Origin: Aeromicrobium sp. | GTDB lineage: Bacteria > Actinomycetota > Actinomycetes > Propionibacteriales > Nocardioidaceae | Assembly: GCA_035401705.1 (NCBI GenBank) | Contig: DAONBX010000010.1 | Coordinates: forward strand, 34-64,033 | Direction of reading: 5' to 3' | Length of the DNA: 64,000 bases | Shown: positions 4,454 to 42,148 of the stretch, piece by piece | Layout of the letters: each line of letters begins with the position of its first letter | How positions within the stretch are numbered: the stretch's first letter is position 1 | Notes under the pieces: model-generated | The model's database searches: none | Told to the model about the DNA's origin: nothing | Seen by the model: the letters and a program-made list of their open reading frames with translations, nothing else | Translations under genes and position numbers: made by a program

Positions 4454-5280
4454 GCGTCCTTTCGTACCAATTCATGCAATACGCGCTCATCGCCGCGATC
4501 ATCACCGGTCTGAGCGCTCCGGCCATCGGCACTTTCATCGTGCAGCGCCGACTCGCACTACTGGGTGATGGGCTAGGCCACGTAGCCCTAACCGGGGTCG
4601 CTTTGGGTCTGCTAACTGGCGTGGCCCCACTGACGACAGCAATCATCGTCGCCATCGGCGGCGCGATTTTGATCGAAGTCCTGCGTGCATACGGGCGAAC
4701 CAGCGGCGACCTCGCCTTAGCGATGCTTTTTTATGGCGGCATTGCCGGGGGTGTTCTGCTCACTAATCTGGCCGGTGAATCGGCCGCAACCTTGAACCAG
4801 TACCTATTCGGCTCGATCATCACCATGAGCAGAGCTGATCTGACAATTGTCGTTGCCCTTGGCGTCGTGGTCGTGGCTCTTTCACTGATTTTTCGCCCGC
4901 AGTTTTTCGCCGTGTGCCAAGACGAGGCGCACGCCAAGGTGATGGGGATTCGGGTTCAACTCTTCGGCATCCTGATCGCCGTGTTGGCGGCCGTCACCAT
5001 CACGGTGGCGATGCGCACAGTCGGTTTGCTGTTGGTTTCGGCGCTCATGGTCGTGCCCGTTGCCGCAGCCCAACAGTTGTCGCGAAGTTTCAAGTCAACC
5101 CACTTTGCCGCCATGGCAATCGGCTTGTTCGCTGCCGTGACCGGCCTGCTCACCAGTTATCAGATCGACGCCCAACCGGGGCCGACGATCGTCATCATCG
5201 CGCTGGTCGTTTTCGTTCTCGCGGCGCTGACTCGTGCGCTGCTTCGCCCAACTTCCACCCAGGAGGCCAAGAATGGTTGA
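4450..5280 (+). CDS. znuB: zinc ABC transporter permease
   Basis: Polytopic membrane protein of the ABC-3 (ZnuB/TroCD) type. ATGA overlap with znuC. Confidence 0.88.
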   Translation: MSVLSYQFMQYALIAAIITGLSAPAIGTFIVQRRLALLGDGLGHVALTGVALGLLTGVAPLTTAIIVAIGGAILIEVLRAYGRTSGDLALAMLFYGGIAGGVLLTNLAGESAATLNQYLFGSIITMSRADLTIVVALGVVVVALSLIFRPQFFAVCQDEAHAKVMGIRVQLFGILIAVLAAVTITVAMRTVGLLLVSALMVVPVAAAQQLSRSFKSTHFAAMAIGLFAAVTGLLTSYQIDAQPGPTIVIIALVVFVLAALTRALLRPTSTQEAKNG

Positions 5281-26314: not shown

Positions 26315-27502
26315 TCAGCCGCCGATGGCTGCGCGCAAGGCGTCAACACGATCGGTGTTCTCCCACGGCAATCCGTCGCGACCGAAGTGGCCGTAGGCGG
26401 CGGTTTCGGCGTAGATCGGACGCAGTAGATCGAGGTCGCGCACGATTGCCGCCGGCCGCAGGTCGAAGACTTCAAGAACGGCTTCGCGGATCTTGTCGAC
26501 TGGAGCGGTTTCGGTGCCGTAGGTATCAACGTAGAAGCCCACTGGATGGGCAACGCCGATCGCGTAAGCCACCTGAACCTCAGCCTTGGTCGCCAGACCA
26601 GCGGCAACGATGTTCTTGGCTACCCAACGCATCGCGTACGCGGCCGAACGGTCAACCTTGCTCGGATCCTTGCCGCTGAATGCGCCGCCGCCGTGGCGGG
26701 CGTAGCCGCCGTAAGTGTCAACGATGATTTTTCGGCCAGTCAGTCCCGCATCGCCCATCGGCCCACCGATGACGAACTTGCCGGTCGGGTTGATGTGCGA
26801 CTTGTAGTCAGACGAATCGATGTCGTACTGATCCAGCACCGCGTCGATCACGTGCTTCTTCAGGTCTTGGGGCAACTGGTTTTCCAAGTCGACGCCGTCT
26901 TCGTGCTGAGTCGAGATGACGATGGCCTCAACCCGAACCGGCTTGTCGTTGTCGTCATATTCGATCGTGACTTGGGTCTTGCCGTCCGGGCGCAGGTACG
27001 GCAGCGTGCCGTCCTTTCGGACCTTGGTCAGTTGCTCGGAGAGGCGGTGCGCGATCGTGATCGGCAACGGCATCAGTTCGGGCGTCTCGTCGCAGGCGAA
27101 GCCGAACATCAGGCCCTGGTCGCCGGCACCCTGTAGGTCAAGTTCGTCGGTTGCTCCACCAACGCGGACTTCCTCGGCCTTGTCAACGCCCTGAGCGATA
27201 TCGGGCGATTGGGCGTCGAGGGTGACCTGAACCGCGCAGGATTCGCCATCGAAGCCCTTGGTCGAGGAGTCATAGCCGATCTCGAGCACGCGATCGCGAG
27301 CAATCCGGGCGATATCAACGTATGCCTCAGTCGTTACTTCACCACCGACGAGAACTAGACCAGTCGTCACGAACGTCTCGGCGGCAACCCGACTCTTGGG
27401 GTCTTGCGCCAACAGGGCGTCGAGAATGCTGTCGCTGATCTGGTCAGCAATTTTGTCCGGGTGACCTTCGGTCACGGACTCGGAGGTGAAAAGACGGCTC
27501 AC
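26315..27502 (-). CDS. metK: S-adenosylmethionine synthase
   Basis: [22 protein letters not shown] and [10 protein letters not shown] motifs. The GTG at 27502, preceded by GAGAGG, is preferred over the ORF-track ATG at 27559. Confidence 0.95.
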
Positions 27503-27588
27503 TGGGTACCTCTCTGGCTCAATTACGTATGTTCGACTGTAGTCGGGGGTGGGAGTCAAAAACTAAAATGTGTCCACTTTCTGGATGG

Positions 27589-28791
27589 TCATTCCAGTAT
27601 TTGGACAACTTCGTCCCAGATCGCATGTGCGATCGTGGACTTGTCGGCGCGAGCGACCAGGTGTTCAGTCCCATCGGCGCGAAGAATCGTTACCTCGTTG
27701 TCGGGCCTACCAAATACCTGCTCTGCACCGACATCGTTGACCACTAGCAAGTCGCAGCCCTTACGCGCCAACTTCTGGCGGGCATGGTCGAGAACCGAGC
27801 CGTTCTCATCACCGGTCTCGGCGGCGAAACCAGCAATCACCGGGGTTTTGCCGGCCCGAGTTGAAACAAGTTCGCGCAAAATGTCCGGGTTTTCTACCAG
27901 CTCAATCGTCGGGGTGGACCCATCGGCGCGCTTTTTAATCTTGGCGCCGGCAACTTCGGAAGGCCGAAAGTCTGCTGGCGCGGCGGCCATAACGACCACG
28001 TCGGCTTCCTCGCTGGCCGCGAGCACCGCTTCGCGAAGCTCAGCGGTAGTGACCACTGGCTCTACTTTGACGCCGACTGGAACTTCAATCGTGACATTCG
28101 CGGCCACCAAAGTAACTTGGGCACCGCGCGCGAGCGCAGCCTCGGCCAGAGCAACACCTTGCAAGCCAGACGAACGATTGCCTAGATAACGAACCGGGTC
28201 CAAGAACTCGCGGGTGCCGCCCGCCGAAACCACGACGTGTCGACCAGCTAGGTCTTGCGTTCGTCCGGTGAGGGTTTTGAGGCAAACTGCGTAGATTTCC
28301 TCGGGTTCAGGTAACCGTCCTGGACCGGTGTCGGCGCCAGTTAGTCGGCCAGATGCCGGGTCAATCACCAAAATGCCGCGAGCGCGCAGCGTCGCCACGT
28401 TCTCGACCGTTGCACTGTGTTCCCACATTTCGGTGTGCATCGCCGGCGCCATCACGACCGGGCACCGAGCCGTCAATAGCGTGTTGGTCAGCAGATCGTC
28501 AGCTAGACCGTGAGCCGCACGAGCGATGGTATTTGCCGTTGCCGGTGCGACCACGACCAAGTCTGCAGTCTGCCCAAGGCGTACGTGCGGAACTTCGTCA
28601 ATGCGCTCAAATACCTCGGTTTGCACCGGGTGACCTGAAAGCGCCTCCCAAGTCGCCGCACCAACAAATTCGAGTGCGGCGGCCGTCGGGACCACCTGGA
28701 CGTCATGTCCAGCCTCGGTGAACAGCCGAACTAAAAGCGCTGCTTTGTAGGCAGCGACACCGCCGGTTACGCCAAGGACGATGCGGCTCAT
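27589..28791 (-). CDS. coaBC: bifunctional phosphopantothenoylcysteine decarboxylase / phosphopantothenate--cysteine ligase
   Basis: Flavoprotein N-domain (IVLGVTGGVAAYKA...PAMHTEMW) and CoaB C-domain (VSAGGTREFLDPVRYLGNRSSG). Confidence 0.93.
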   Translation of the reverse strand: MSRIVLGVTGGVAAYKAALLVRLFTEAGHDVQVVPTAAALEFVGAATWEALSGHPVQTEVFERIDEVPHVRLGQTADLVVVAPATANTIARAAHGLADDLLTNTLLTARCPVVMAPAMHTEMWEHSATVENVATLRARGILVIDPASGRLTGADTGPGRLPEPEEIYAVCLKTLTGRTQDLAGRHVVVSAGGTREFLDPVRYLGNRSSGLQGVALAEAALARGAQVTLVAANVTIEVPVGVKVEPVVTTAELREAVLAASEEADVVVMAAAPADFRPSEVAGAKIKKRADGSTPTIELVENPDILRELVSTRAGKTPVIAGFAAETGDENGSVLDHARQKLARKGCDLLVVNDVGAEQVFGRPDNEVTILRADGTEHLVARADKSTIAHAIWDEVVQILE

Positions 28792-28801
28792 CGCGACAGG
28801 C

Positions 28802-29098
28802 TCAGGCCTCGTCGGTGGCCTCGGCCACAGTGCCCTCGGCGGGCAAATCCTCGACCGTCAACAAGTCGGCGTTGATCTCGCGAAGCGCGATCGATAGCGG
28901 CTTCTCCTCGACGGCGGTCTCGAGCAACGGGCCGACGTACTCCAGCAGGCCTTCGCCCAACTGGGAGTAGTACGCGTTGATCTGACGGGCGCGCTTGGCG
29001 CTGTACAAGACCAGTCGGTACTTGGAGTCTGCCTTCTCGAGCAGGTCATCGATAGGCGGGTTGGTGATGCCTTCGGCAGTAGAACGCGTCGTGGACAC
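28802..29098 (-). CDS. rpoZ: DNA-directed RNA polymerase subunit omega
   Basis: [35 protein letters not shown]. Confidence 0.93.
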
Positions 29099-29124
29099 TC
29101 AGGTTCTCCAGAAGTTTCTAGGTT

Positions 29125-29700
29125 TCAACCGGCGTCAACTGACGAACCGGAACTAAACAAGTCTACCAACTCTTGACCGGCTTTCTCGACTTCGGTGTTG
29201 GTGATCACCACATCGAATTCGGCAACCGCCGCCAATTCCTGTCGTGCCGTGGCCAAGCGCCGCTCGCGTTCGGCCTCGTTCTCGGTCCCGCGGCCGACAA
29301 GTCGACTGACCAATTCTTCCCAACTGGGGGGCGCGAGGAACACCATCACCGCGTCGGGAGCATGCTGCTTTACCTGCCTAGCGCCCTGTAGATCGATCTC
29401 TAGTAATACCGAATTTCCAGCAGCCAACTGATCCTCGACGGCTTTGCGCGGGGTGCCGTAACGGTTCACCCCATGGACCGTCGCCCACTCCAACAGCCCG
29501 TCCGAATCGATTAGGTGATCGAACTCTTTGGCCGACACGAAGTGGTAGTGCTGCCCGTCGACTTCGCCGGGGCGAGGAGCGCGAGTGGTGGCCGAGACCG
29601 ACATGGTGATTTCGGGGTGGTGGTCACGGACCCAGGCTGCGACGGTCCCCTTACCAACCGCGGTTGGCCCGGCCAACACGATTAGTTTCGCTCCACTCAT
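29125..29700 (-). CDS. gmk: guanylate kinase
   Basis: P-loop [30 protein letters not shown] and LEIDLQGA. Confidence 0.93.
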
Positions 29701-30017
29701 CCGCGGCGCGCGATCTCGGCGATCAGACCGGCCGACTGGTTCGATCCCAGCCCACGTAACCGGCGGCTCTCGGCGATCTTCAAATCCGCCATGATCTGTT
29801 GGGCAGTCAACTTTCCGATGCCTGGAATTGCCTGCAAAAGGTCTAGAACCTTGATTTTTGCAATTGCTTCGTTTGTTTTTGCTTCGGCGAGAACTTCAGC
29901 AACTGATGCCCCCGAGTGGCGCAGTCGGTTCTTTACTTCGGCGCGCACGAGCCGGGCAGCCGAAGCCTTGGCCAAAGCTTCGCGTCGCTGTTCATCACTC
30001 AGTTCGGGAAGTGCCAC
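29697..30017 (-). CDS. mihF: actinobacterial integration host factor
   Basis: [27 protein letters not shown]...[20 protein letters not shown] is typical of mIHF. Conserved position upstream of gmk. Confidence 0.88.
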
Positions 30018-30046: not shown

Positions 30047-30478
30047 TTACTTCTTACTCAAGTCAATGCCACATTCTTCCTGCGCATGGGCCACCACTTT
30101 TTCACGATCGGCTTGAGTGTCATTGAAAGCACCGAAAGCCTTGTCTAGGCGATCTATGTCGGCTTGGGAGAGCGCGTTTGCCTGCTCTTCTAACTTTAGT
30201 TCTTCAAGTTTGATCCCGGACTTGTCCAACGCAGAAACAACGTCTGTGGTCGCCTTGGAGATCGAGTTCCATTGGGGCGCAATTGCCGCTGGCGCGACCT
30301 TCGCTACGCTCGCCGCCGCTGCTGCGTTGGCTTCAAAATTGGCTTGAGTGCGCTTGTCGAATTTGGCGAAAACGTCGGCGTTTTCGTTGATCGCATCACA
30401 GTAGGCCCCTCCCCCTGAACAAGCGGTGAGCGAACCAACTGCCAGAACGGAACACAGGAGAAAGGCAATTCGGCGCAC
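30047..30478 (-). CDS. hypothetical helical lipoprotein, divergent from the ECF sigma operon
   Basis: A GTG at 30478 gives VRRIAFLLCSVLAVGSLTAC-SGG (lipobox). The rest is Ala/Glu/Lys-rich and helical, with Cys near both ends of the mature protein. No family recognised. Confidence 0.6.
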   Translation of the reverse strand: MRRIAFLLCSVLAVGSLTACSGGGAYCDAINENADVFAKFDKRTQANFEANAAAAASVAKVAPAAIAPQWNSISKATTDVVSALDKSGIKLEELKLEEQANALSQADIDRLDKAFGAFNDTQADREKVVAHAQEECGIDLSKK

Positions 30479-30530
30479 CCGGACACAATACTGCGGTATC
30501 AGCGTGCCCTCTTCACGCCTCGTCGAGAGT

Positions 30531-31118
30531 GTGCGCACAATAAACCCCGTGACCGACGATGGGCGATGGATTCGTTCCGCAGAAGCCTTCGACCGCTGGC
30601 GTAGCGGCGAACGCGGCGCGATTGACGAACTTGTTCACGAAATGACACCCGTGCTCTGGCATGTTGTTCGTGCCTACCGCCTAGATGAGGACGTCTGCGA
30701 AGACATCGTTCAGTTCACTTGGCTGACTCTCGTTCGCAAAGCAGACAGCGTTGAGAATCCGCGTGCGATCGCAGCCTGGTTGATCATCACCGCGCGACGC
30801 CAGGCTTGGCGAGTGGCCGCCCGCAAGCGTCGTGAGGACCCAGTCGATGAAGAACTTCTCGCCCCTGTCTTACCCAAGACCGCCAGTGCCGAGTCGGTAG
30901 CCGTCGAAACCGACGGAAACCACCGCCTCTGGGCCGCAGTCTCCCGGCTCAATGAACGCTGCCAGCGGCTGCTTCGAGTTATCGCCTTTGACGACCGGCC
31001 CGACTATGAGCATCTATCCCAGGAGATGGGCATGCCGATCGGCAGCATTGGCCCCACCCGACGCCGCTGCCTAGAGAAACTCAAGTCGTCTATGTCTGAC
31101 GAGGGGGCCAAACCATGA
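30531..31118 (+). CDS. ECF-type RNA polymerase sigma factor
   Basis: Region 2 (DELVHEMTPVLWHVVRAYRLDEDVCEDIVQFTWLTLVRK...AWLIITARRQAWRVAARKRRE) and region 4 (LNERCQRLLRVIAFDDRPDYEHLSQEMGMPIGSIGPTRRRCLEKLK). The ORF is open from 30426. Candidate starts are GTG at 30504, 30531 and 30549, so the start is uncertain. Confidence 0.85.
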   Translation: MRTINPVTDDGRWIRSAEAFDRWRSGERGAIDELVHEMTPVLWHVVRAYRLDEDVCEDIVQFTWLTLVRKADSVENPRAIAAWLIITARRQAWRVAARKRREDPVDEELLAPVLPKTASAESVAVETDGNHRLWAAVSRLNERCQRLLRVIAFDDRPDYEHLSQEMGMPIGSIGPTRRRCLEKLKSSMSDEGAKP

Positions 31119-31561
31119 GCGAACGCGAACCGATTTTCGATGACCTTCGCCGAATGTTTGAAGCGTTGGACCCGCCGCCAGAACACCTCGAAGAAGCCAT
31201 GATCGCCGCCGTCGCTGCCGAGGATCTCGATAGTGAATATGCGCTGCTTAGCCTGCTTAGCCGAAACAACGAACTGGTCGGAACGCGTGGCGCCGGCCCG
31301 CTGACGGTCGAGTTTGCCTATAACGATGTGACCGTCTTGCTGCGGGTCACTGACGGGCCGAAAGCAAACACGCGTCGCATTGACGGCTGGATTACGCCAA
31401 GTGCAGACGGAAACGTCCGTCTTGTTGCTGGCGAGAACGAGGTGCGAGCCACCTTGCGCAGTGGTCGATTCGAGATTGAGTCGATCCCCTGCGGTCTTAT
31501 CCGAGTTTGGTTCGAGGTAACAGGTCGAGACGACCTCGCCACCCCAACGTTTGAAGTCTGA
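31115..31561 (+). CDS. 148-aa soluble protein translationally coupled to the sigma factor (candidate anti-sigma factor or protease substrate)
   Basis: The ATG overlaps the sigma stop (ATGA at 31115-31118). Acidic helical N-terminus and beta-rich C-terminus (GRFEIESIPCGLIRVWFEV). No TM helix, no signal peptide and no HxxxCxxC motif. Confidence 0.65.
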   Translation: MSEREPIFDDLRRMFEALDPPPEHLEEAMIAAVAAEDLDSEYALLSLLSRNNELVGTRGAGPLTVEFAYNDVTVLLRVTDGPKANTRRIDGWITPSADGNVRLVAGENEVRATLRSGRFEIESIPCGLIRVWFEVTGRDDLATPTFEV

Positions 31562-31569
31562 GGAGAACC

Positions 31570-33171
31570 ATGGCGACCGAATATCCGAACCGGCCGAAAC
31601 CACCGCTGTTCGAGGCTCAGGACTCTTGGACCAGACCCCGGTCGATCGCCGAACGTGAAGGCCAAGTGCTCGATCCGTCGACTGCTGCGGCCTCGCCAGA
31701 CCCCGAAGCAAGCACCACCACATATCTGTCGACTCGCCTGCTGGTGTCGACCCTGATCGATACTTCGGCCGCACTCGACCTGCTGCGCCGCGCCGGCGAC
31801 ACGTTCCACTGGGACGTTGGCGAGGACGAGTCGTTTGGCCGGGTGCAAATTGATAGCACCGACCAAGAGCGCGAATCTCGGCTCCTGCGTTACCCATGGG
31901 CTACCGGCACGGTCGGTCTGATCCGAGTGATCGTGACTCCTCGCGACGATGCCCGGGCTCGCCCGCCGGATGCGTGGTCGCTGCTACAGACCGCCCGGGC
32001 GATGGCGCGCGGCCAAGAGTTGCTGTATGGCATCGGCCTAGACCACGTCGTGACGCTCTACCCCCATGCGAAGTCGAACCCACACGCGAAGTCCAACCCC
32101 CACGCGAAGTCGAACCCACACGCGAAGTCCAACGGTGCACTAACTGACGCTTATGCCGAACCGGGCACGGGCGGGCGCCAACCCGTGGCCTTCACCGGCC
32201 GGGCTCCGCACCGAACCGAACTGGCCCCCAACGAGCGCGCGCATATTGGCTTCGTTGACACCGGCTGCGGTGAGCATTGGTGGTTAGACCCGAAGTTCGT
32301 CCACGATGGAAGTTTTCTTGGCCCAGTCACGCCGATCGGTCTGGTGGGTGAATCCACCGACCCCGAACGAGTCGGCGACGTTGGCGGGCCGCTTGATGGG
32401 ATGCTCGACGAAGCCTCCGGCCACGGCACTTTCATTGCCGGCCTGCTTCACCAGGGAGCACCAGATGCTGACCTGTGGTGGTGGCGGGTGGCCGAGTCCG
32501 ACGGCACGATGGCCGAATCTGATTTGCTTGTCGTAATCGCCCGGATAGCGCACCTTTTGCGGCTCGACGAAGCAGCAGGTGGGCTGCGCTTGGACGTGCT
32601 CAACCTTTCGTTCGGCTACTACCATGAGACCCCGGTGGACGCGAAGTTCGATCCGACGTTCTACGAGTTGCTCGCCGCGATCGGGCGCACCGGAACCGTG
32701 GTGGTTTGTTCGGCTGGAAACGATGCCACCACTCGGCCGATGTTTCCGGCCGCTTGGAGCAACCACGAGGGTGTCGAGCAAATTATTGCCCTTGACCCAA
32801 TGGCCGCACCGATCGTGGCGGTGGGCGCCCTAAACACCAGCGGGATCACTGATGCGTTGTTTACCAACGCTGGCCCCTGGGTGCGGGCCTACCGGACCGG
32901 CACTGCGCTTTTGAGCACTTTCCCGGCGTTCCAAACAGGTCTTGAACCGACGGCCCGACTACGCACGGCCGACGGCAGGCTGCGTGAATCATTTGACCCT
33001 GACGACTTTCGCAGCGGCTTCGCGATCTGGAGTGGCTCGTCCTTTGCCGCCCCAGTGTTTGCCGCCGAACTTGCGTGCGCTCTTTCCCAAACACGAGTCA
33101 GTCAAGACGACTGGGTGAGCGTGACTGAGCGGGCAACGAGCGCGGTCGAATCTTTGCTCGACATAAAGTGA
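31570..33171 (+). CDS. S8-family (subtilisin-like) serine peptidase, no signal peptide, with N-terminal extension and HAKSNP repeat linker
   Basis: Catalytic motifs are in order: HIGFVDTG (Asp230, nt 32257), SGHGTFIAG (His285, nt 32422), LNLSFG (Asn345) and SGSSFAAP (Ser491, nt 33040). GGAG lies 6-9 nt upstream of the ATG. The N-terminus MATEYPNRPKPPLFE is not a secretion signal. Confidence 0.85.
   Translation: MATEYPNRPKPPLFEAQDSWTRPRSIAEREGQVLDPSTAAASPDPEASTTTYLSTRLLVSTLIDTSAALDLLRRAGDTFHWDVGEDESFGRVQIDSTDQERESRLLRYPWATGTVGLIRVIVTPRDDARARPPDAWSLLQTARAMARGQELLYGIGLDHVVTLYPHAKSNPHAKSNPHAKSNPHAKSNGALTDAYAEPGTGGRQPVAFTGRAPHRTELAPNERAHIGFVDTGCGEHWWLDPKFVHDGSFLGPVTPIGLVGESTDPERVGDVGGPLDGMLDEASGHGTFIAGLLHQGAPDADLWWWRVAESDGTMAESDLLVVIARIAHLLRLDEAAGGLRLDVLNLSFGYYHETPVDAKFDPTFYELLAAIGRTGTVVVCSAGNDATTRPMFPAAWSNHEGVEQIIALDPMAAPIVAVGALNTSGITDALFTNAGPWVRAYRTGTALLSTFPAFQTGLEPTARLRTADGRLRESFDPDDFRSGFAIWSGSSFAAPVFAAELACALSQTRVSQDDWVSVTERATSAVESLLDIK
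32065..32136 (+). repeat. in-frame tandem repeat, 4 x 18 bp (2 x 36 bp higher-order unit), encoding (HAKSNP)x3 plus HAKSNG
   Basis: catgcgaagtcgaaccca cacgcgaagtccaacccc cacgcgaagtcgaaccca cacgcgaagtccaacggt. Units 1 and 3, and units 2 and 4, share the same synonymous variants (tcg/cca versus tcc/ccc). Confidence 0.95.
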
Positions 33172-33172
33172 C

Positions 33173-35629
33173 ATGCCTAAAACGAGTCCGGCCGAACTCC
33201 ATCAGCGCGGTGTAGCAGCAATCAACCGCGGTCATTTTCAGCGCGCCCAGGCCCTGCTAACTCAGGCGCTCGAGCTAGCGGTCGAGCCCGATCTGTTGGC
33301 TCGCGTCAATGCGAGTTTGGCCTACACCCAAGCTGAACTCGGCGACCGCCAAGGAGCTCTAGAACGCTGTGCGGCCGCGATGCGAATCGAGGGCCTATCG
33401 CCTCGAGCCCGCGCAATCGTGCGGTCGCAACAAGCAGTACTGATGTCTCGCGGCGGCGACCTAGCCGCAGTAATCGGGCTTTTTGACTTGGCGCTTCCTG
33501 CGCTTACCCCCGCTTCGACTGAACGCGCAAATGCCCTAGTAAATCGCGGGATCGCACACCTCGAGCTTGGAAAACTCGACTTGGCGAACGATGATTTCGT
33601 CGGGGCCACAGCTGACTATTTGGCCGACGACAACCTCGAAGGGGCCGCGTCGGCCGAACACAACAGCGGTTACGTCCACCTGCTGCAAGGTGACCTAGTT
33701 GGCGCCTTGGAAATGATGGAACGAGCTGAAACCGGCCTGACGTCGGCCGGACTCCAAGTGCGCACGATCGGCATTCAAGACCGGGCGGAAGTGTTGCTCA
33801 GCGCTGGCATGACTCGCGATGCCGTCGAGTTGCTGGAACAGGCCGTCACCAATTTCACCAAATTGCGGCTGCCGCGGATGCGCGCCGAATGCGAAGTGAT
33901 GCTGGGCAGGGCGCTGTTGTGGCTAGATCCTGCTAAGTCACGAATACTGGCTCGGGCGGCTGCCCGTCGTCTCCGTCGGCATGGAAATGACACCTGGGCG
34001 CTGCGGGCAGACACGCTCGAATTGATTGCTGAGAGCACTAGCGGCCGCAACAATCCGAACTGGTTGTCCACCGCCGAAGAACTGTCGGCGCAGTTGCGCA
34101 CCCATCTACTTGCGCACGAAGCCCAGTTATTAGACCTGAATGCCGCCAGAGTCGCAGTCGCGGTCGGTGACCTGACAGTTGCAAGCGAATTGTTGGTGCG
34201 TGGGCGCCCGACCGCGACCGACTCGTTAGCCGAACGGCTACTGGAATGTCGAGCCAAAGCCGACCTAGCGCTCGCGCAGGGGCGTCAGCTCGAAGCCTTG
34301 CGCCAACTTCGTTGCGGCCTCGACCTATTGCACGACTGGCAGTCTTCGTTCGGCAGCCTCGACCTGATGAGTTCGGTGGTTGGCCACGGCCGGTCCCTTG
34401 CTACCACCGGAATTCAACTAGCGATCGCCGACGGGTCGCCGGAGTTGGTCTTCGAATGGTCCGAGCGCGCCCGAGCACTGACCACTCGAGTGGTTCCGGT
34501 GCGTCCGCCACGGGACGAACAACTGGCAGCTGACCTCATCGAAATCCGCACCCTGACTTCGGTAGAGCCAGCGGCCGGTACCAGCGAGGCCGAGCGCCTT
34601 GGCGAACTGCGCGAGCGCGTGCGTAAGCGGTCGTGGTTGGGAGCCGGTTCCGGCGAGGTAAACCGGATTGCTTCGGTGGACGAACTTGTCGAGGCACTCG
34701 GGCCAGATGTCGCCTTGGTCAGCTATCTATGGGATGGCCAGTCGCGACTAACTGCGATTGTTTTAACCGACCAAGCCCAGCAAGTAGTTGAGCTAGGTGA
34801 ATCCGAACCGGTCCGGCACCTGATCGCCGGACTGGCCGCAGATTTGGACATGAACGCCAGTGACCTGAGCGTCACGATGGCCCAAGTTATCCGCGAGAGT
34901 CTGGACCGGAGGCTGGCCGACATCGCCGCGGCGCTGGTGGACCCGATCCTGAGTCAACTAGGCGACCGTCGCGTGGTGATCACTCAGGCTGGCATTCTGG
35001 CCGGAGTGCCGTGGTCGATGCTTGCTGGCTACCGCGGCCGCCCATTGGCGATCGCGTTTACGGCCTCTGGTTGGCTCCAGACGCGCGGCCTCGACTCCCC
35101 CGTAACCTTGGGCTTAGTCGCTGGCCCGCAGGTTTCTCGAGCGGTCGAAGAAGTCGAACTCTCGGCGACCTGTTGGACCGAGGCAACGGTGTTGACCGAC
35201 GCCCGGGCGACCACCGCCGCGGTCCAAGACTTGGCGGCGAAAGTCGATCTCCTGCACATTTCGGCACATGGACGCCATTCGGCGGAGAATCCACTGTTTT
35301 CAGGCGTGCTGCTGGCCGACGGTCCGCTGTTTGGCTACGACCTCGACCAACTGACCACGGTGCCTCAAGTCGTGATTTTGTCGGCTTGCGAGGTTGGTCG
35401 ATCGACCCAACGCTGGGCCGAGGAATCGCTCGGCATGGTCAACGCTTGGCTACACGCCGGCGCGCGCTGCGTAATCGCCTCGCCGGCCGCAGTCGCCGAC
35501 GACGAAGCCTGTGAAGTGCTCTCGCACGTTCACCGCTTGATGGCCGCCGGTGCGGCACCTGCGGTCGCGTTGGCCGAGGCGACGAGTGATCGCCCGACCT
35601 CCTTCCTGGCTTTTGGCGCGGGTTGGTGA
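33173..35629 (+). CDS. TPR-repeat plus CHAT-domain (caspase-like) protease
   Basis: The N-terminal ~480 aa consist of TPR-like helical repeats (e.g. RGHFQRAQALLTQALEL, ASLAYTQAELGDRQGALERCAAAM). The C-terminal CHAT domain has LLHISAHG (His699, nt 35267) and VVILSACEVG (Cys739, nt 35387). The ATG lies 1 nt after the S8 stop. Confidence 0.85.
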   Translation: MPKTSPAELHQRGVAAINRGHFQRAQALLTQALELAVEPDLLARVNASLAYTQAELGDRQGALERCAAAMRIEGLSPRARAIVRSQQAVLMSRGGDLAAVIGLFDLALPALTPASTERANALVNRGIAHLELGKLDLANDDFVGATADYLADDNLEGAASAEHNSGYVHLLQGDLVGALEMMERAETGLTSAGLQVRTIGIQDRAEVLLSAGMTRDAVELLEQAVTNFTKLRLPRMRAECEVMLGRALLWLDPAKSRILARAAARRLRRHGNDTWALRADTLELIAESTSGRNNPNWLSTAEELSAQLRTHLLAHEAQLLDLNAARVAVAVGDLTVASELLVRGRPTATDSLAERLLECRAKADLALAQGRQLEALRQLRCGLDLLHDWQSSFGSLDLMSSVVGHGRSLATTGIQLAIADGSPELVFEWSERARALTTRVVPVRPPRDEQLAADLIEIRTLTSVEPAAGTSEAERLGELRERVRKRSWLGAGSGEVNRIASVDELVEALGPDVALVSYLWDGQSRLTAIVLTDQAQQVVELGESEPVRHLIAGLAADLDMNASDLSVTMAQVIRESLDRRLADIAAALVDPILSQLGDRRVVITQAGILAGVPWSMLAGYRGRPLAIAFTASGWLQTRGLDSPVTLGLVAGPQVSRAVEEVELSATCWTEATVLTDARATTAAVQDLAAKVDLLHISAHGRHSAENPLFSGVLLADGPLFGYDLDQLTTVPQVVILSACEVGRSTQRWAEESLGMVNAWLHAGARCVIASPAAVADDEACEVLSHVHRLMAAGAAPAVALAEATSDRPTSFLAFGAGW

Positions 35630-35630
35630 G

Positions 35631-36451
35631 TTAGCCGAGCAGTGAGAGTGAGTCGTTGACTGCGGCTGCGGCCGCCCGAAGTGAAGCCACGTCGGGCCCC
35701 TTGGCTAGAACGTCTCGAGACGTCGACGGGATGATCGAACCGGTGACCGTGCCGAACAGTCGGCGCAGGTCATCGACCGTTCCGCCTTGGGCACCGAAAC
35801 CTGGCACCAAGATTGGCCCGTTGAAGTCAAGCCGCTGGGTATCTAGGTGGGCGACGGTTGCACCGATGACTGCTCCGAACGAACCCATCGGGGTTGCGCC
35901 CTCGTTGGCTTGGGAAAGTTCGGCGAGGATCTCGTCGCCGACGGTCAGGCCCGAGTCGACCGTGGCCGCTTGGAACTGCATCGCCTCTGGGTTCGAGGTG
36001 AAGGCAAGGACGAAAACCCCAGCGTCATTTTGTTCGGCCGCCGCAAAAAATGGCGTCAGCGAGCCGAAGCCAAGATACGGGCTGACCGTGATCGCATCGG
36101 CAGCCATCGGCGAATCGTCGTCAAGGTACGCCTCGGCGTAGGCTGCAGCAGTTGAACCGATGTCGCCGCGCTTGACGTCAAGAATTGTCAAGGTTCCGGT
36201 GTGGCGAAGGTCTTGCAGCGTTCGCTCCAAGATCGCCACGCCGGCGGCTCCGAAGCGCTCAAAGAAGGCCGACTGCGGCTTAGCGAAGGCGACCTTCCCG
36301 GCGAACGCCTCAACACAGGTCGCGGCGAACTGGTCGAGCCCGTCGATTGAGTCGTCCAGTCCCCACTGCTGGAGTAGGTGCGCGTGCGGATCGATGCCAA
36401 CGCACAGCGGCCCGTAAGCCGACATCGCCACTGCAGCGCGCGAACCGAACG

Positions 36452-36455
<4 letters not shown>
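35631..36455 (-). CDS. pyrF: orotidine 5'-phosphate decarboxylase (type 2)
   Basis: [10 protein letters not shown]...[12 protein letters not shown]...; 274 aa actinobacterial long form. The start overlaps the carB stop. Confidence 0.92.
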
Positions 36456-39758
<3,303 letters not shown>

Positions 39759-39766
<8 letters not shown>

Positions 39767-40874
39767 GAGCGGCCTCCATTACTTCTGCGAAACGGTCGAA
39801 CAGGTAGGCCGCGTCGTGCGGACCAGCAGCTGCCTCTGGGTGGTATTGGACGCTGAAGCCGGGACGCTCCAGCAGAGCGATGCCTTCGACGACGTCGTCG
39901 TTGAGGCAAACATGGGTAACTTGGGCAGGACCATAGGCCGTGTCGAACGTGCCTTCCAATGGGGCGTCGACCGCGAAGCCGTGGTTGTGCGCAGTGATTT
40001 CCACCCGTCCGGTGGTGCGATCTTGGACTGGCTGGTTCACGCCGCGGTGGCCGTACTTGAGTTTGTAGGTTCCTCGGCCAAGTGCACGGCCAAAAATCTG
40101 GTTGCCAAGGCAGATGCCGAAGTATGGAATGCCTCGGTCCAAGACTGCCTGAACGACCGCCACTTGATGGTCGGCGGTGGCCGGGTCGCCCGGGCCATTG
40201 GACATGAACACGCCATCGGGGTTGATGGCCACTACGTCTTCGAATGTCGAGTCGGCTGGCAGCACGTGGACTTCTATTCCGCGCTGGGCCATCAACTTGG
40301 GCGTCATACCTTTGATCCCAAGGTCGAGCGCCGCGACGGTGAATTTCTTTTCGCCGACTGCCGGCACGACATACGCCTCGGGCGCGGTTACGTCGGCCAG
40401 GAAGTTCGAGCCGGTCATCGCCGGCGCCTGCCGCACCTGAGAGAGCAAGGTTTCAGCGTCGAGCACTTCGGTGCTGATCGCGGCTCGCATCGAACCGCGT
40501 TCGCGCAAGTGACGGGTCAGCGCCCGCGTGTCGATGTCGCTGATGCCGACAACTTCGTTGTCGACTAACAGGTCGTCGAGGCTGCGGTCGGCTCGCCAGT
40601 TCGACGGCAGCCTCGCCGGGTCCCGAACGACGTAGCCGTCGACCCAAACTTGGCGCGATTCAAAATCGGTGGCGTTCGCACCGGTGTTGCCGATGTGTGG
40701 GGCCGTCATCACCACTATCTGGCCCCGGTACGAAGGGTCAGTCAACGTCTCTTGGTAACCGGTCATGCCGGTGTTGAATACGATCTCGGCGATCGTCGTT
40801 CCAGTCGCACCATAGGAACGCCCATGGAACGTCCGACCATCCTCAAGCACCAGAATTGCGGGCACTGAACTCAC
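39759..40874 (-). CDS. carA: carbamoyl-phosphate synthase small subunit
   Basis: [18 protein letters not shown]... and glutamine amidotransferase motif GICLGNQ...HNHG. Confidence 0.95.
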
Positions 40875-42148
40875 TGCAGTTCTCCTTCCAAGACCGTCGG
40901 CCGACCGGCCAAGAACGTTGCCACCACACGACCAGGTAGTTCACGGCCGGCGTAGGGGGTGTTTCGCGACAAACTCGCCGTGTCGCTCGGTTCAACCACG
41001 CGGGTAGCCGTCGGGTCGTAAAGCACGACATGGGCCGGTTCGCCGACGGCGAGGGGCCGACCATGATTGGCGACGCGGCCGATTCGGGCCGGGTTCGAGC
41101 TCAGCTTTTCGGCGACCTGTTCCCAGGTGAGAGCCCCGGTGTCGACCATGGTCTGCTGGACGATCGACAATGCCGTCTCCAAGCCGATCATGCCGAAAGC
41201 GGCCGCCTGCCACTCGCACTCTTTGTCCTCCATCGGATGCGGCGCGTGGTCGGTGGCAACGATGTCAATCGTGCCGTCGGCCAGACCCTCACGCACTGCG
41301 AGCACATCGTCGGCGCTGCGAAGCGGCGGATTGACTTTGAAGATCGGGTCATAACTGCGCACCAACTCGTCGTCGAGCAACAGATGATGCGGGGTCACCT
41401 CGGCGGTGACGTTGATCCCGCGACTCTTGGCCCAGCGCACGATCTCGACTGAACCTCTGGTCGACAGGTGGCACACGTGCAAGCGGCTGCCGACATGCTC
41501 AGCCAACAAGACGTCACGAGCGATGATCGCTTCTTCGGCAACTGCCGGCCAGCCGGTGAGCCCGAGTTCGCCCGAGAGTGGGCCCTCGTTCATTTGTGCG
41601 CCTTCGGTCAGGCGCGGCTCTTGAGCGTGCTGGGCGATAACGCCGTCGAATGCTTTTACGTATTCCAAAGCCCGACGCATTAGCACCGCATCGGATACGC
41701 ATTTGCCGTCATCGCTGAATACCCGCACCTTCGCGGCCGAGTCCGCCATCGCGCCAAGTTCGGCGAGGTGTTCGCCCGCCAGTCCAATAGTTACTGCACC
41801 GATCGGTTGCACGTCGGCGTAACCGTGCTCTCGACCAAGTCTCCAGACCTGCTCGACCACCCCTGCGGTATCGGCCACCGGTTCGGTGTTCGCCATCGCA
41901 AACACGCAGGTGAACCCGCCGCGGGCTGCGGCCTGAGTGCCGGTCAAGACAGTCTCGGCGTCCTCGCGACCAGGCTCGCGCAAGTGGGTGTGCAGGTCGA
42001 CTAAGCCCGGCAGGGCGATCAACCCAGTCGCATCGACGACGGTGTCGCCGGTCAAATCGCTACCGACCTGGGTGATGACCCCATCCTCGATGCAAATATC
42101 AGCAACCTGCTCACCGAGGAGTTTCGCGCCCTTGATGACCGTGCTCAT
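40871..42148 (-). CDS. pyrC: dihydroorotase
   Basis: [18 protein letters not shown] and VATDHAPH motifs. Confidence 0.93.

Follow-up and report, generated by a model that had tools for sequence, protein, structure and literature searches.

Co-variation between a TPR-CHAT protein and a hexapeptide repeat of the neighbouring subtilase in an ECF54-type sigma factor cassette of Aeromicrobium

Among sigma factors of the extracytoplasmic function (ECF) type, the actinobacterial group ECF54 is described, in the lines that a review devotes to it, as lacking a recognisable anti-sigma factor and as a case in which proteolytic control has been proposed (PMC8999054), and the passages on this group name carboxypeptidase(-regulatory-like), subtilase and CHAT domain proteins as products of the neighbouring genes (PMC8999054; PMC7826278). 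The review refers to Huang et al. 2015 (J Bacteriol) and to Casas-Pastor et al. 2021 (NAR, PMC7826278), and the latter, where it treats ECF54, also mentions a 4Fe-4S protein near the sigma genes. Here we analyse a cassette of four plus-strand genes, encoding an ECF sigma factor, a 148-aa partner, an S8 subtilase and a protein with tetratricopeptide repeats (TPR) and a CHAT protease domain, in a 64,000-nucleotide stretch of DNA from Aeromicrobium sp. (contig DAONBX010000010.1; the whole stretch is called the window, and positions follow its numbering unless a locus is named). The cassette matches ECF54 at the level of gene context: the source is actinobacterial, the sigma factor is of the ECF type, with sigma-2 and sigma-4 only and no extra domain, the carboxypeptidase-regulatory, subtilase and CHAT neighbours stand beside it in conserved synteny, and none of the four proteins matched an anti-sigma family in Pfam or NCBIfam. 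Neither was an anti-sigma candidate found among the neighbour genes in three of the related loci (L001-L003), nor did the conserved flanking clusters, judged from their sequences only, include a conserved 4Fe-4S neighbour. Hence the question left open in an earlier note on this DNA, whether the cassette had already been catalogued, can be answered: it is catalogued but uncharacterised, and what appear to be new are the hexapeptide repeat of its subtilase and the recognition code of its TPR region.

TPR-CHAT proteins have been linked to ECF sigma factors in other settings. In type III-E CRISPR loci the TPR-CHAT protein Csx29 cleaves Csx30, an inhibitor of CASP-sigma (PMC10028731); the cleavage site lies at residues 427-429 (PMC10028731), and Csx30 is therefore far larger than the 148-aa partner described here. 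In the DdvA-DdvS system of Myxococcus xanthus, a TPR-CHAT domain is proposed to start the proteolytic release of an ECF sigma factor (PMC11506125). DdvA is a single membrane-spanning anti-sigma factor with a zinc-binding cytoplasmic domain and a periplasmic TPR-CHAT part, it acts in an RseP-dependent manner, and its CHAT active site is incomplete (PMC11506125). The earlier note had likened our cassette to the type III-E module and had proposed that proteolysis controls its sigma factor; the general logic is plausible, the same proposal having already been published for ECF54 (PMC8999054), while the specific kinship was not supported, as the CHAT family profile retrieved no Csx29 from the PDB. 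The idea of a relay between two proteases, raised in the same note, gains new support from our analyses, in which the TPR region of the CHAT protein co-varies with a species-specific repeat of the S8 protein.

The four genes and the hexapeptide array

The genes follow one another almost without spacing. In the open reading frame (ORF) list the long form of the sigma gene runs from 30426 to 31118, the partner gene from 31115 to 31561, the S8 gene from 31570 to 33171 and the TPR-CHAT gene from 33173 to 35629. The sigma stop and the partner ATG share the ATGA at 31115-31118, the partner stop is followed by 8 nt containing GGAG before the S8 ATG, and a single nucleotide separates the S8 stop from the CHAT ATG; the co-directional layout and all junction coordinates were thus as first reported, and Pfam and NCBIfam profiles also bore out the domains that had been named for the sigma factor, the S8 protein and the TPR-CHAT protein. 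The sigma factor matches Sigma70_r2 (PF04542, E value 1.2e-6) and TIGR02937 (sigma70-ECF, 8.4e-16) over residues 65-222 of the long ORF, and among solved structures it is closest to RpoE/SigE of Rhodobacter sphaeroides (2q1z). The S8 protein matches Peptidase_S8 (PF00082, 6.2e-11), and the fourth protein matches CHAT (PF12770, 6.4e-25) together with TPR_2, TPR_1, TPR_12 and TPR_MalT. A crude Kyte-Doolittle hydropathy scan with 19-residue windows gave maxima of 0.77, 1.04, 1.53 and 1.63 for the four proteins and no clear stretch in the transmembrane range, so that the whole module appears to be cytoplasmic, as had been suggested.

Relatives of the CHAT protein, sought in a collection with one genome per species, were present in 423 genomes, and synteny was counted in 80 fetched loci. 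In about 70 of these the sigma, partner, S8 and CHAT genes share one strand and follow one another in this order, the exceptions being mostly truncated contigs. This four-gene arrangement is far beyond chance, and the neighbourhood check called for in the earlier note thus came out in its favour across actinobacterial genera.

The S8 protein is, as modelled, built like a zymogen, with an N-terminal domain, a repeat linker and a catalytic domain. The N-terminal domain (aa 1-164, 31570..32061), delimited by AlphaFold2 and by conserved motifs, is predicted to adopt a ferredoxin-like beta-alpha-beta-(alpha)-beta-alpha-beta fold in the prodomain position (mean predicted local distance difference test score, pLDDT, 84, and above 90 for aa 50-160); it is conserved over aa ~30-160, including the motifs PDxWxLLQxxR and GLDH. 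The catalytic domain (aa ~195-533, 32152..33171) was placed by PF00082 and by alignment to subtilisin BPN' and CylA. Its D230 (DTG), H285 (HGT) and S491 (GSSFAAP) are at least 97% conserved among 72 homologues, and these Asp-His-Ser motifs, together with the oxyanion residue N384 (SAGN), which aligns with N155 of BPN', make it a member of family S8. The earlier note had named the catalytic triad correctly and had taken Asn345 as its asparagine; this residue, in the 'NMSLG' motif, corresponds to N123 of BPN'.

Between the two domains lies an array of four PHAKSN hexapeptides (aa 165-188, 32062..32133), detected by Tandem Repeats Finder as a DNA repeat of period 18 with 4.1 copies and 87% matches. 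At least three perfect period-6 copies were found in 59 of the 72 S8 proteins encoded in such cassettes, one further protein has a period-5 array, and most of the others contain degenerate copies; arrays hold between 3 and 8 copies, and in the wider family periods of 5, 7 or 8 are seen as well. The unit itself is highly variable, with 53 different units in 67 loci and the consensus P-[FVLYH]-[HED]-x-[SGP]-[NH]. Within a protein the copies are kept alike: among 187 adjacent unit pairs with identical peptides, the DNA is identical in 29, and the mean is two synonymous differences per 18 nt. Since the units are identical as peptides and divergent as DNA, selection, and not just recent slippage, keeps them identical. 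We know of no description of a tandem array of identical hexapeptides at such a junction in subtilases. In a word-indexed database search the S8 protein gave a best match of only 49% identity and none of 100%, the CHAT and partner proteins having retrieved themselves; the repeat, or a limit on the number of candidates considered, may have interfered with this search, which has no bearing on our conclusions.

The TPR-CHAT protein begins with a TPR or helical-repeat region (aa 1-~375, 33173..34297), as delimited by the TPR profile matches, and ends with the CHAT protease domain (aa 582-804 by PF12770; 34916..35629, gene end included). H699 and C739, the His-Cys pair expected of CHAT and clan CD proteases and already pointed out in the earlier note, show no variation among 15 sequences and reach at least 97% conservation among 81; hence both proteases look catalytically competent from their sequences. 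Searched against the PDB, the family profile matched only TPR proteins, over aa 1-190, with weak matches to NprR; neither the protein nor the profile retrieved Csx29 (E<1), DdvA or separase.

Co-variation connects the two proteases. Each position of the repeat unit was set against each variable column of the four proteins, in 4960 tests over 56-66 loci, and the five highest-ranking columns all belong to the TPR region at the N-terminus of the CHAT protein. At CHAT18, Asn accompanies Ser or Thr at unit position 5 in 33 of 33 loci and Pro in 0 of 18. At CHAT85, Ser goes with Asn at position 6 (30/33), Ala, Gly or Cys with His (20/26) and Gln with Ser (4/4). Likewise, CHAT120 pairs with position 4 (Arg with Asp/Glu, 19/22; Asn with Arg, 5/5; Thr with His, 5/7) and CHAT162 with position 2 (Glu with Phe, 26/31). 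The residue pairings are chemically complementary. In the window protein the co-varying residues are N18, S85, N120, G157 and E162, all within the first ~200 aa, and CHAT aa 1-200 holds 13 of the top 30 columns while accounting for 18% of the tests.

Shared ancestry was controlled for with a tree built without the TPR and repeat regions. Parsimony placed 13 changes of CHAT18 and unit position 5, and 12 of CHAT85 and position 6, at the same nodes; each of the two columns ranks first of about 1300 in this co-location test (p about 1e-5). Permuting the units within clades matched the observed association in 0-6 of 5000 trials (CHAT18, 85, 120 and 157). A contrast between changed and unchanged sister pairs was set aside, as it was confounded by pair divergence, and was replaced by the parsimony and within-clade permutation tests. 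A residue of the subtilase also tracks the unit: S8 residue 308 co-varies with position 5 (Met with Gly, 10/14; Val with Ser, 29/31) and aligns with Leu96 of subtilisin BPN', a residue of the S2/S4 pocket wall. Given these patterns, we infer that the repeat unit is read both in the TPR groove and in the substrate cleft of the S8 protein, and because the TPR region of the CHAT protein co-varies with a species-specific repeat of the S8 protein, our results suggest that the CHAT protease and the subtilase dock onto each other.

A proposed coupled proteolytic relay and its alternatives

We propose the following mechanism. The partner, presumed to be an anti-sigma factor or a regulatory substrate, would hold the sigma factor inactive, while the TPR groove of the CHAT protein would bind the hexapeptides of the S8 linker and so make one machine of the two proteases. 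A cytoplasmic signal would lead to cleavage in or near this linker, whose x-x-Pro-hydrophobic register is of the classical subtilisin substrate type, as in AAPF; we propose the PHAKSN array both as the ligand of the TPR domain and as a place where S8 cuts. The relay could run in either direction, CHAT acting on S8 or S8 on CHAT. The active protease or proteases would then destroy the partner, and the freed sigma factor would boost its own operon and, in other genera, adjacent genes with the same promoter. We consider the chances about even that the cassette is an ECF54-type module in which the sigma factor is released by proteolysis and the two proteases are physically coupled. The narrower proposal of a private peptide code, in which the TPR region reads the S8-linker hexapeptide, tethered or released, and thereby gates the relay to sigma release, we hold more tentatively, at somewhat less than even chances.

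Several observations weigh against this relay. After strict correction for multiple tests, the best co-variation retains p about 0.04-0.07 over the 56-66 loci, and the co-varying CHAT residues are presumed to face the TPR binding groove. A co-variation search on the sigma factor and the partner stayed at background level, and the N-terminal helices of the partner were not enriched in hits; nor did Pfam, NCBIfam or the scan of its homologues reveal an anti-sigma domain in the partner. Not every part is obligatory: the S8 gene is missing in one locus (L075, 6766-7001), the sigma gene in one clade (L059, L066, L071 and L080, ~4490-4850), and the S8 protein of Nonomuraea has no perfect repeats. 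The N-terminal domain of the subtilase was considered as an I9 propeptide; Foldseek returned weak, generic ferredoxin-like matches (E >=0.03), and since there is no Pfam or PDB sequence match either, we do not call it I9. Moreover, the ECF analyses caution, in the part concerned with gene context, that neighbours may be targets of a sigma factor rather than its regulators (PMC7826278), and our search of the accessible literature found no experimental work on any member of an ECF54 cassette.

The most probable alternative is that the sigma factor does no more than turn on the operon, so that the partner, the subtilase and the CHAT protein are its output and not its regulators. The proteases would then act on cellular or foreign proteins, for example in stress proteolysis, cell death or development, and the partner would be a protease inhibitor, an adaptor or a first substrate. 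We regard this as unlikely, though it deserves more weight than the other alternatives discussed below. Upstream of the sigma gene lies a putative ECF promoter (30496..30533, plus strand) with a -35 element GTATCA at 30496-30501, a 16-nt spacer, a -10 element CCTCG at 30518-30522 and 8 nt before a GTG codon. Of 68 non-identical regions upstream of the sigma gene, 60 contain GTATCA, and none of 67 control coding segments does; aligned on this hexamer, the consensus reads GTATCAG-N16-CTCCT-N5-8-GTG, with CCTCG in Aeromicrobium, and the start codon lies 7-8 nt past the -10 box in ~40 of 45 loci. In the window the two-part motif occurs once, against 0.34 copies expected from shuffles, and no further copies were found there. 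The motif is laid out like an ECF -35/-10 promoter whose predicted transcription start falls at or beside the start codon, which suggests a leaderless and autoregulated sigma transcript. Because this conserved promoter precedes the GTG at 30531, and because homology across loci begins at about residue 48 of the long ORF, the most likely sigma gene runs from 30531 to 31118 and encodes 195 aa. The earlier note was therefore right about the gene and probably not about its start at 30426; the GTG start would also remove an overlap with an opposite-strand, putative lipoprotein ORF.

In other genera the same promoter motif recurs beyond the sigma gene. A second copy stands directly past the CHAT stop in many Nocardioides-type loci, before genes of a ~100-aa protein family that follows CHAT in 21 loci and has no Pfam match; extra copies also precede a papain-like Peptidase_C1 in three loci and a vWA protein in one. 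The copies downstream of CHAT lie at ~9440-9510 in L012, L020, L035, L043-L046, L050, L060, L072, L077-L079 and L082, and at 6831 in L054, 9094 in L064, 10161 in L070 and 9806 in L047. A guess that the ~100-aa family consists of chagasin-like inhibitors was dropped, the Pfam scan being empty. The genes behind these copies, which are absent from the window, are candidate regulon members, and the presence of the motif before Peptidase_C1 and ~100-aa family genes is what one would expect if proteases were an output of the sigma factor. The four loci without a cassette sigma gene point the same way, as they keep the promoter and the partner, S8 and CHAT genes, and so does the partner's lack of a detected anti-sigma domain; gene context by itself does not separate regulators from targets, as stated in the pertinent passage of the ECF classification (PMC7826278). 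On the other hand, the ATGA overlap of sigma and partner genes, kept in most loci, is typical of sigma/anti-sigma pairs, the four families stay linked even where their order has changed, and no other anti-sigma candidate lies beside the sigma gene.

Copies of the motif on the minus strand were also seen (L011 4117, L014 318, L017 2832, L021 3560, L028 4094, L032 3593, L056 4147 and L076 4113), as was the inverted sequence CTGATAC (L047, L077, L075, L043 and L020). These opposite-strand or inverted copies stand upstream of the sigma gene, which points to divergent promoters or an operator. The gene behind the copy in L017 is putatively FemAB-like, by the appearance of its sequence.

The partner has no direct family match in Pfam or NCBIfam, while 12 of 25 homologues match CarboxypepD_reg (PF13620, best E value 1.6e-5), by which it is, judged by sequence, the 'carboxypeptidase' domain protein of the ECF54 description. 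Its AlphaFold2 model, built from a narrower alignment and not from the broader one of the fetched loci (mean pLDDT 78, ~90 within the sandwich), predicts N-terminal helices at aa 5-18 and 25-55 and a seven-strand beta-sandwich at aa 63-135 that resembles a carboxypeptidase regulatory domain. A more specific structural relative was sought with Foldseek, which yielded only generic Ig-like sandwiches. Invariant in the family are D19, P20, P22, R58, R88, D90, G91, W92, G117, R118, F119, G127 and T143, and the C-terminal tail ATPxFE[IL] is conserved (aa 141-148, nt 31535-31558). Partner residue 145 changes at the same tree nodes as CHAT 773, 784 and 785, and partner residue 140 at the same nodes as CHAT 764 (p about 2e-5, not significant after correction). 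CHAT aa 764-785 (nt 35462-35527) lie past the catalytic Cys, near the active site. Possibly, then, the tail touches CHAT as a substrate or pseudo-substrate, of which these co-changes are a weak hint.

A second alternative is a variant of our own proposal, in which the S8 protein cuts its own linker after each Pro-hydrophobic pair and thereby frees several identical hexapeptides (here AKSNPH), and the free peptides, as ligands of the TPR sensor, activate or silence CHAT. Such a circuit would be the equivalent, inside the cell, of Phr-Rap, NprX-NprR and PapR-PlcR, and it has a parallel in the Phr peptides, which are freed by S8 proteases and bound by TPR receptors. The selected identity of the units within a protein, set against 53 units in 67 loci, fits such a private code; the register [S/G/P]-[N/H]-P-[F/V/L/Y] resembles that of the subtilisin substrate mentioned above, the S8 pocket residue that matches Leu96 tracks position 5 of the unit, and the reading of four unit positions by four separate TPR positions would suit a short peptide bound in the groove. 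However, cleavage is only predicted, co-variation cannot separate a tethered from a released ligand, and 3 to 8 copies with periods of 5-8 suit a docking array equally well. Export or import machinery is also missing, though a circuit confined to the cytoplasm would need none. Altogether we find this variant improbable.

Genomic setting and distribution

All related loci are actinobacterial, and the cassette occurs in Aeromicrobium, Nocardioides, Marmoricola, Microbacterium, Lacisediminihabitans, Luteipulveratus and Segeticoccus. A metagenome-assembled genome of Aeromicrobium sp. encodes a protein with 100% identity to the partner, and the nearest named CHAT homologues, at 56-66% identity, are also from Aeromicrobium. 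The flanking genes vary by genus and are of housekeeping rather than defence type; since they differ between genera, the four genes travel as one unit. In Nonomuraea gerenzanensis (L084, 3117-8409) the same four families occur in the order S8, sigma, partner, CHAT, and this linkage despite a changed order argues for a functional connection and not for an inherited gene order. In one locus (L044, 3920-5340) an insertion of ~1.4 kb separates the partner and S8 genes.

In the window, one flank of the cassette carries metK, coaBC, rpoZ, gmk and mihF (26315-30017), and the other, on the opposite strand, pyrF, carB, carA and pyrC (35631-42148), with pyrF abutting the CHAT stop; the gene names of both flanks were taken from the Pfam labels of A. 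flavum. The cassette of A. flavum occupies the identical place, between the pyrF side and the mihF-gmk-rpoZ side, and the GC content of the window cassette is like that of its surroundings. The identical placement suggests that the cassette has long resided in the chromosome and is not a mobile island. Divergent from the cassette, the minus-strand ORF 30047..30538 encodes a putative lipoprotein whose signal-like segment ends in LTAC, and in its longest form it overlaps the long sigma ORF; at its place A. flavum has a 144-aa ORF (L001, 4788-5222) with no Pfam match.

Least probable of all is a CRISPR-less defence system of the Craspase kind, in which the TPR-CHAT protein senses infection, cleaves the partner and frees a defence sigma factor: precedents exist in Csx29, which cleaves the CASP-sigma inhibitor Csx30 (PMC10028731), and, with similar domain logic, in DdvA-DdvS (PMC11506125), but a PADLOC 2.0 scan of the four proteins matched CHAT alone, as a weak, partial and generic hit to BovA (6.2e-5, 76 profile positions), a search of 2.9 million viral contigs brought up no relatives and one of plasmids no genuine match, the place in the Aeromicrobium chromosome is fixed, the flanks in other genera are of the housekeeping type, and the detected sequence relation to Csx29 goes no further than the Pfam CHAT domain. 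The anti-phage role that the earlier note had considered thus found no positive evidence in our analyses, whereas its remark that the window contains neither Cas7-11 nor a CRISPR array was borne out: no CRISPR-like spaced direct repeats were found in the 64 kb, and the largest ORFs encode 1104 (taken as carB), 885, 882 and 818 aa.

Significance and comparison with known systems

No regulator is known for ECF54, and its mode of control has been a purely bioinformatic proposal since 2015. The co-variation of repeat and TPR region turns the vague idea of a protease controlling the sigma factor into a specific one and makes ECF54 regulation directly testable; with 423 genomes encoding a CHAT relative, any such mechanism would be widespread among Actinobacteria of soil and fresh water. 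If our proposal is true, a bacterial caspase-like protease and a subtilase would form a coupled relay, the species-specific units and their receptors would be naturally orthogonal peptide-receptor pairs usable in synthetic circuits, and the cassette would represent an undescribed type of cytoplasmic signalling that joins caspase cascades, zymogen activation and peptide-TPR signalling.

Compared with the ECF54 record, the likeness is complete in the features that define the group there, namely an actinobacterial ECF sigma factor, no recognisable anti-sigma factor and the same three neighbouring domains, whereas the hexapeptide linker, the TPR co-variation and the leaderless promoter are not part of the gene-context description in the published passages on this group. 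With Craspase the cassette shares a TPR-CHAT gene beside genes for an ECF sigma factor and a protein that inhibits the sigma factor until cleavage, here the presumed role of the partner, and a sigma factor that autoregulates its locus, in our case putatively and through the promoter motif. It differs in that the window has no Cas7-11, crRNA, CRISPR array or Csx31, that the 148-aa partner, composed of helices and a beta-sandwich, is unlike Csx30, that a second protease (S8) is present, and that activation would come from a peptide or protein and not from RNA; the two CHAT proteins are related at the level of the Pfam domain only, and PADLOC gives no Csx match. DdvA-DdvS is alike in the use of a TPR-CHAT protein in a proposed proteolytic release of an ECF sigma factor; unlike DdvA, our cassette encodes separate, apparently soluble proteins with a conserved His-Cys pair, no clear transmembrane segment and no zf-HC2 or other anti-sigma domain.

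Subtilase zymogens carry N-terminal I9 propeptides, and intracellular subtilisins carry inhibitory N-terminal extensions. Our S8 protein likewise has, ahead of its catalytic domain, an alpha/beta domain that is probably removed or displaced for activity; it differs from those known in having no I9 or other match and in the hexapeptide array at its junction with the protease. In the RRNPP systems (Rap-Phr, NprR-NprX, PlcR-PapR) S8 proteases free short, strain-specific oligopeptides that are read in a TPR groove, peptide and receptor co-evolve, the peptides are exported, processed outside and re-imported, and the receptor acts as a transcription factor or phosphatase. In the cassette described here, by contrast, the output of the TPR receptor would be a caspase-like protease, and the hexapeptide is encoded inside the protease itself.

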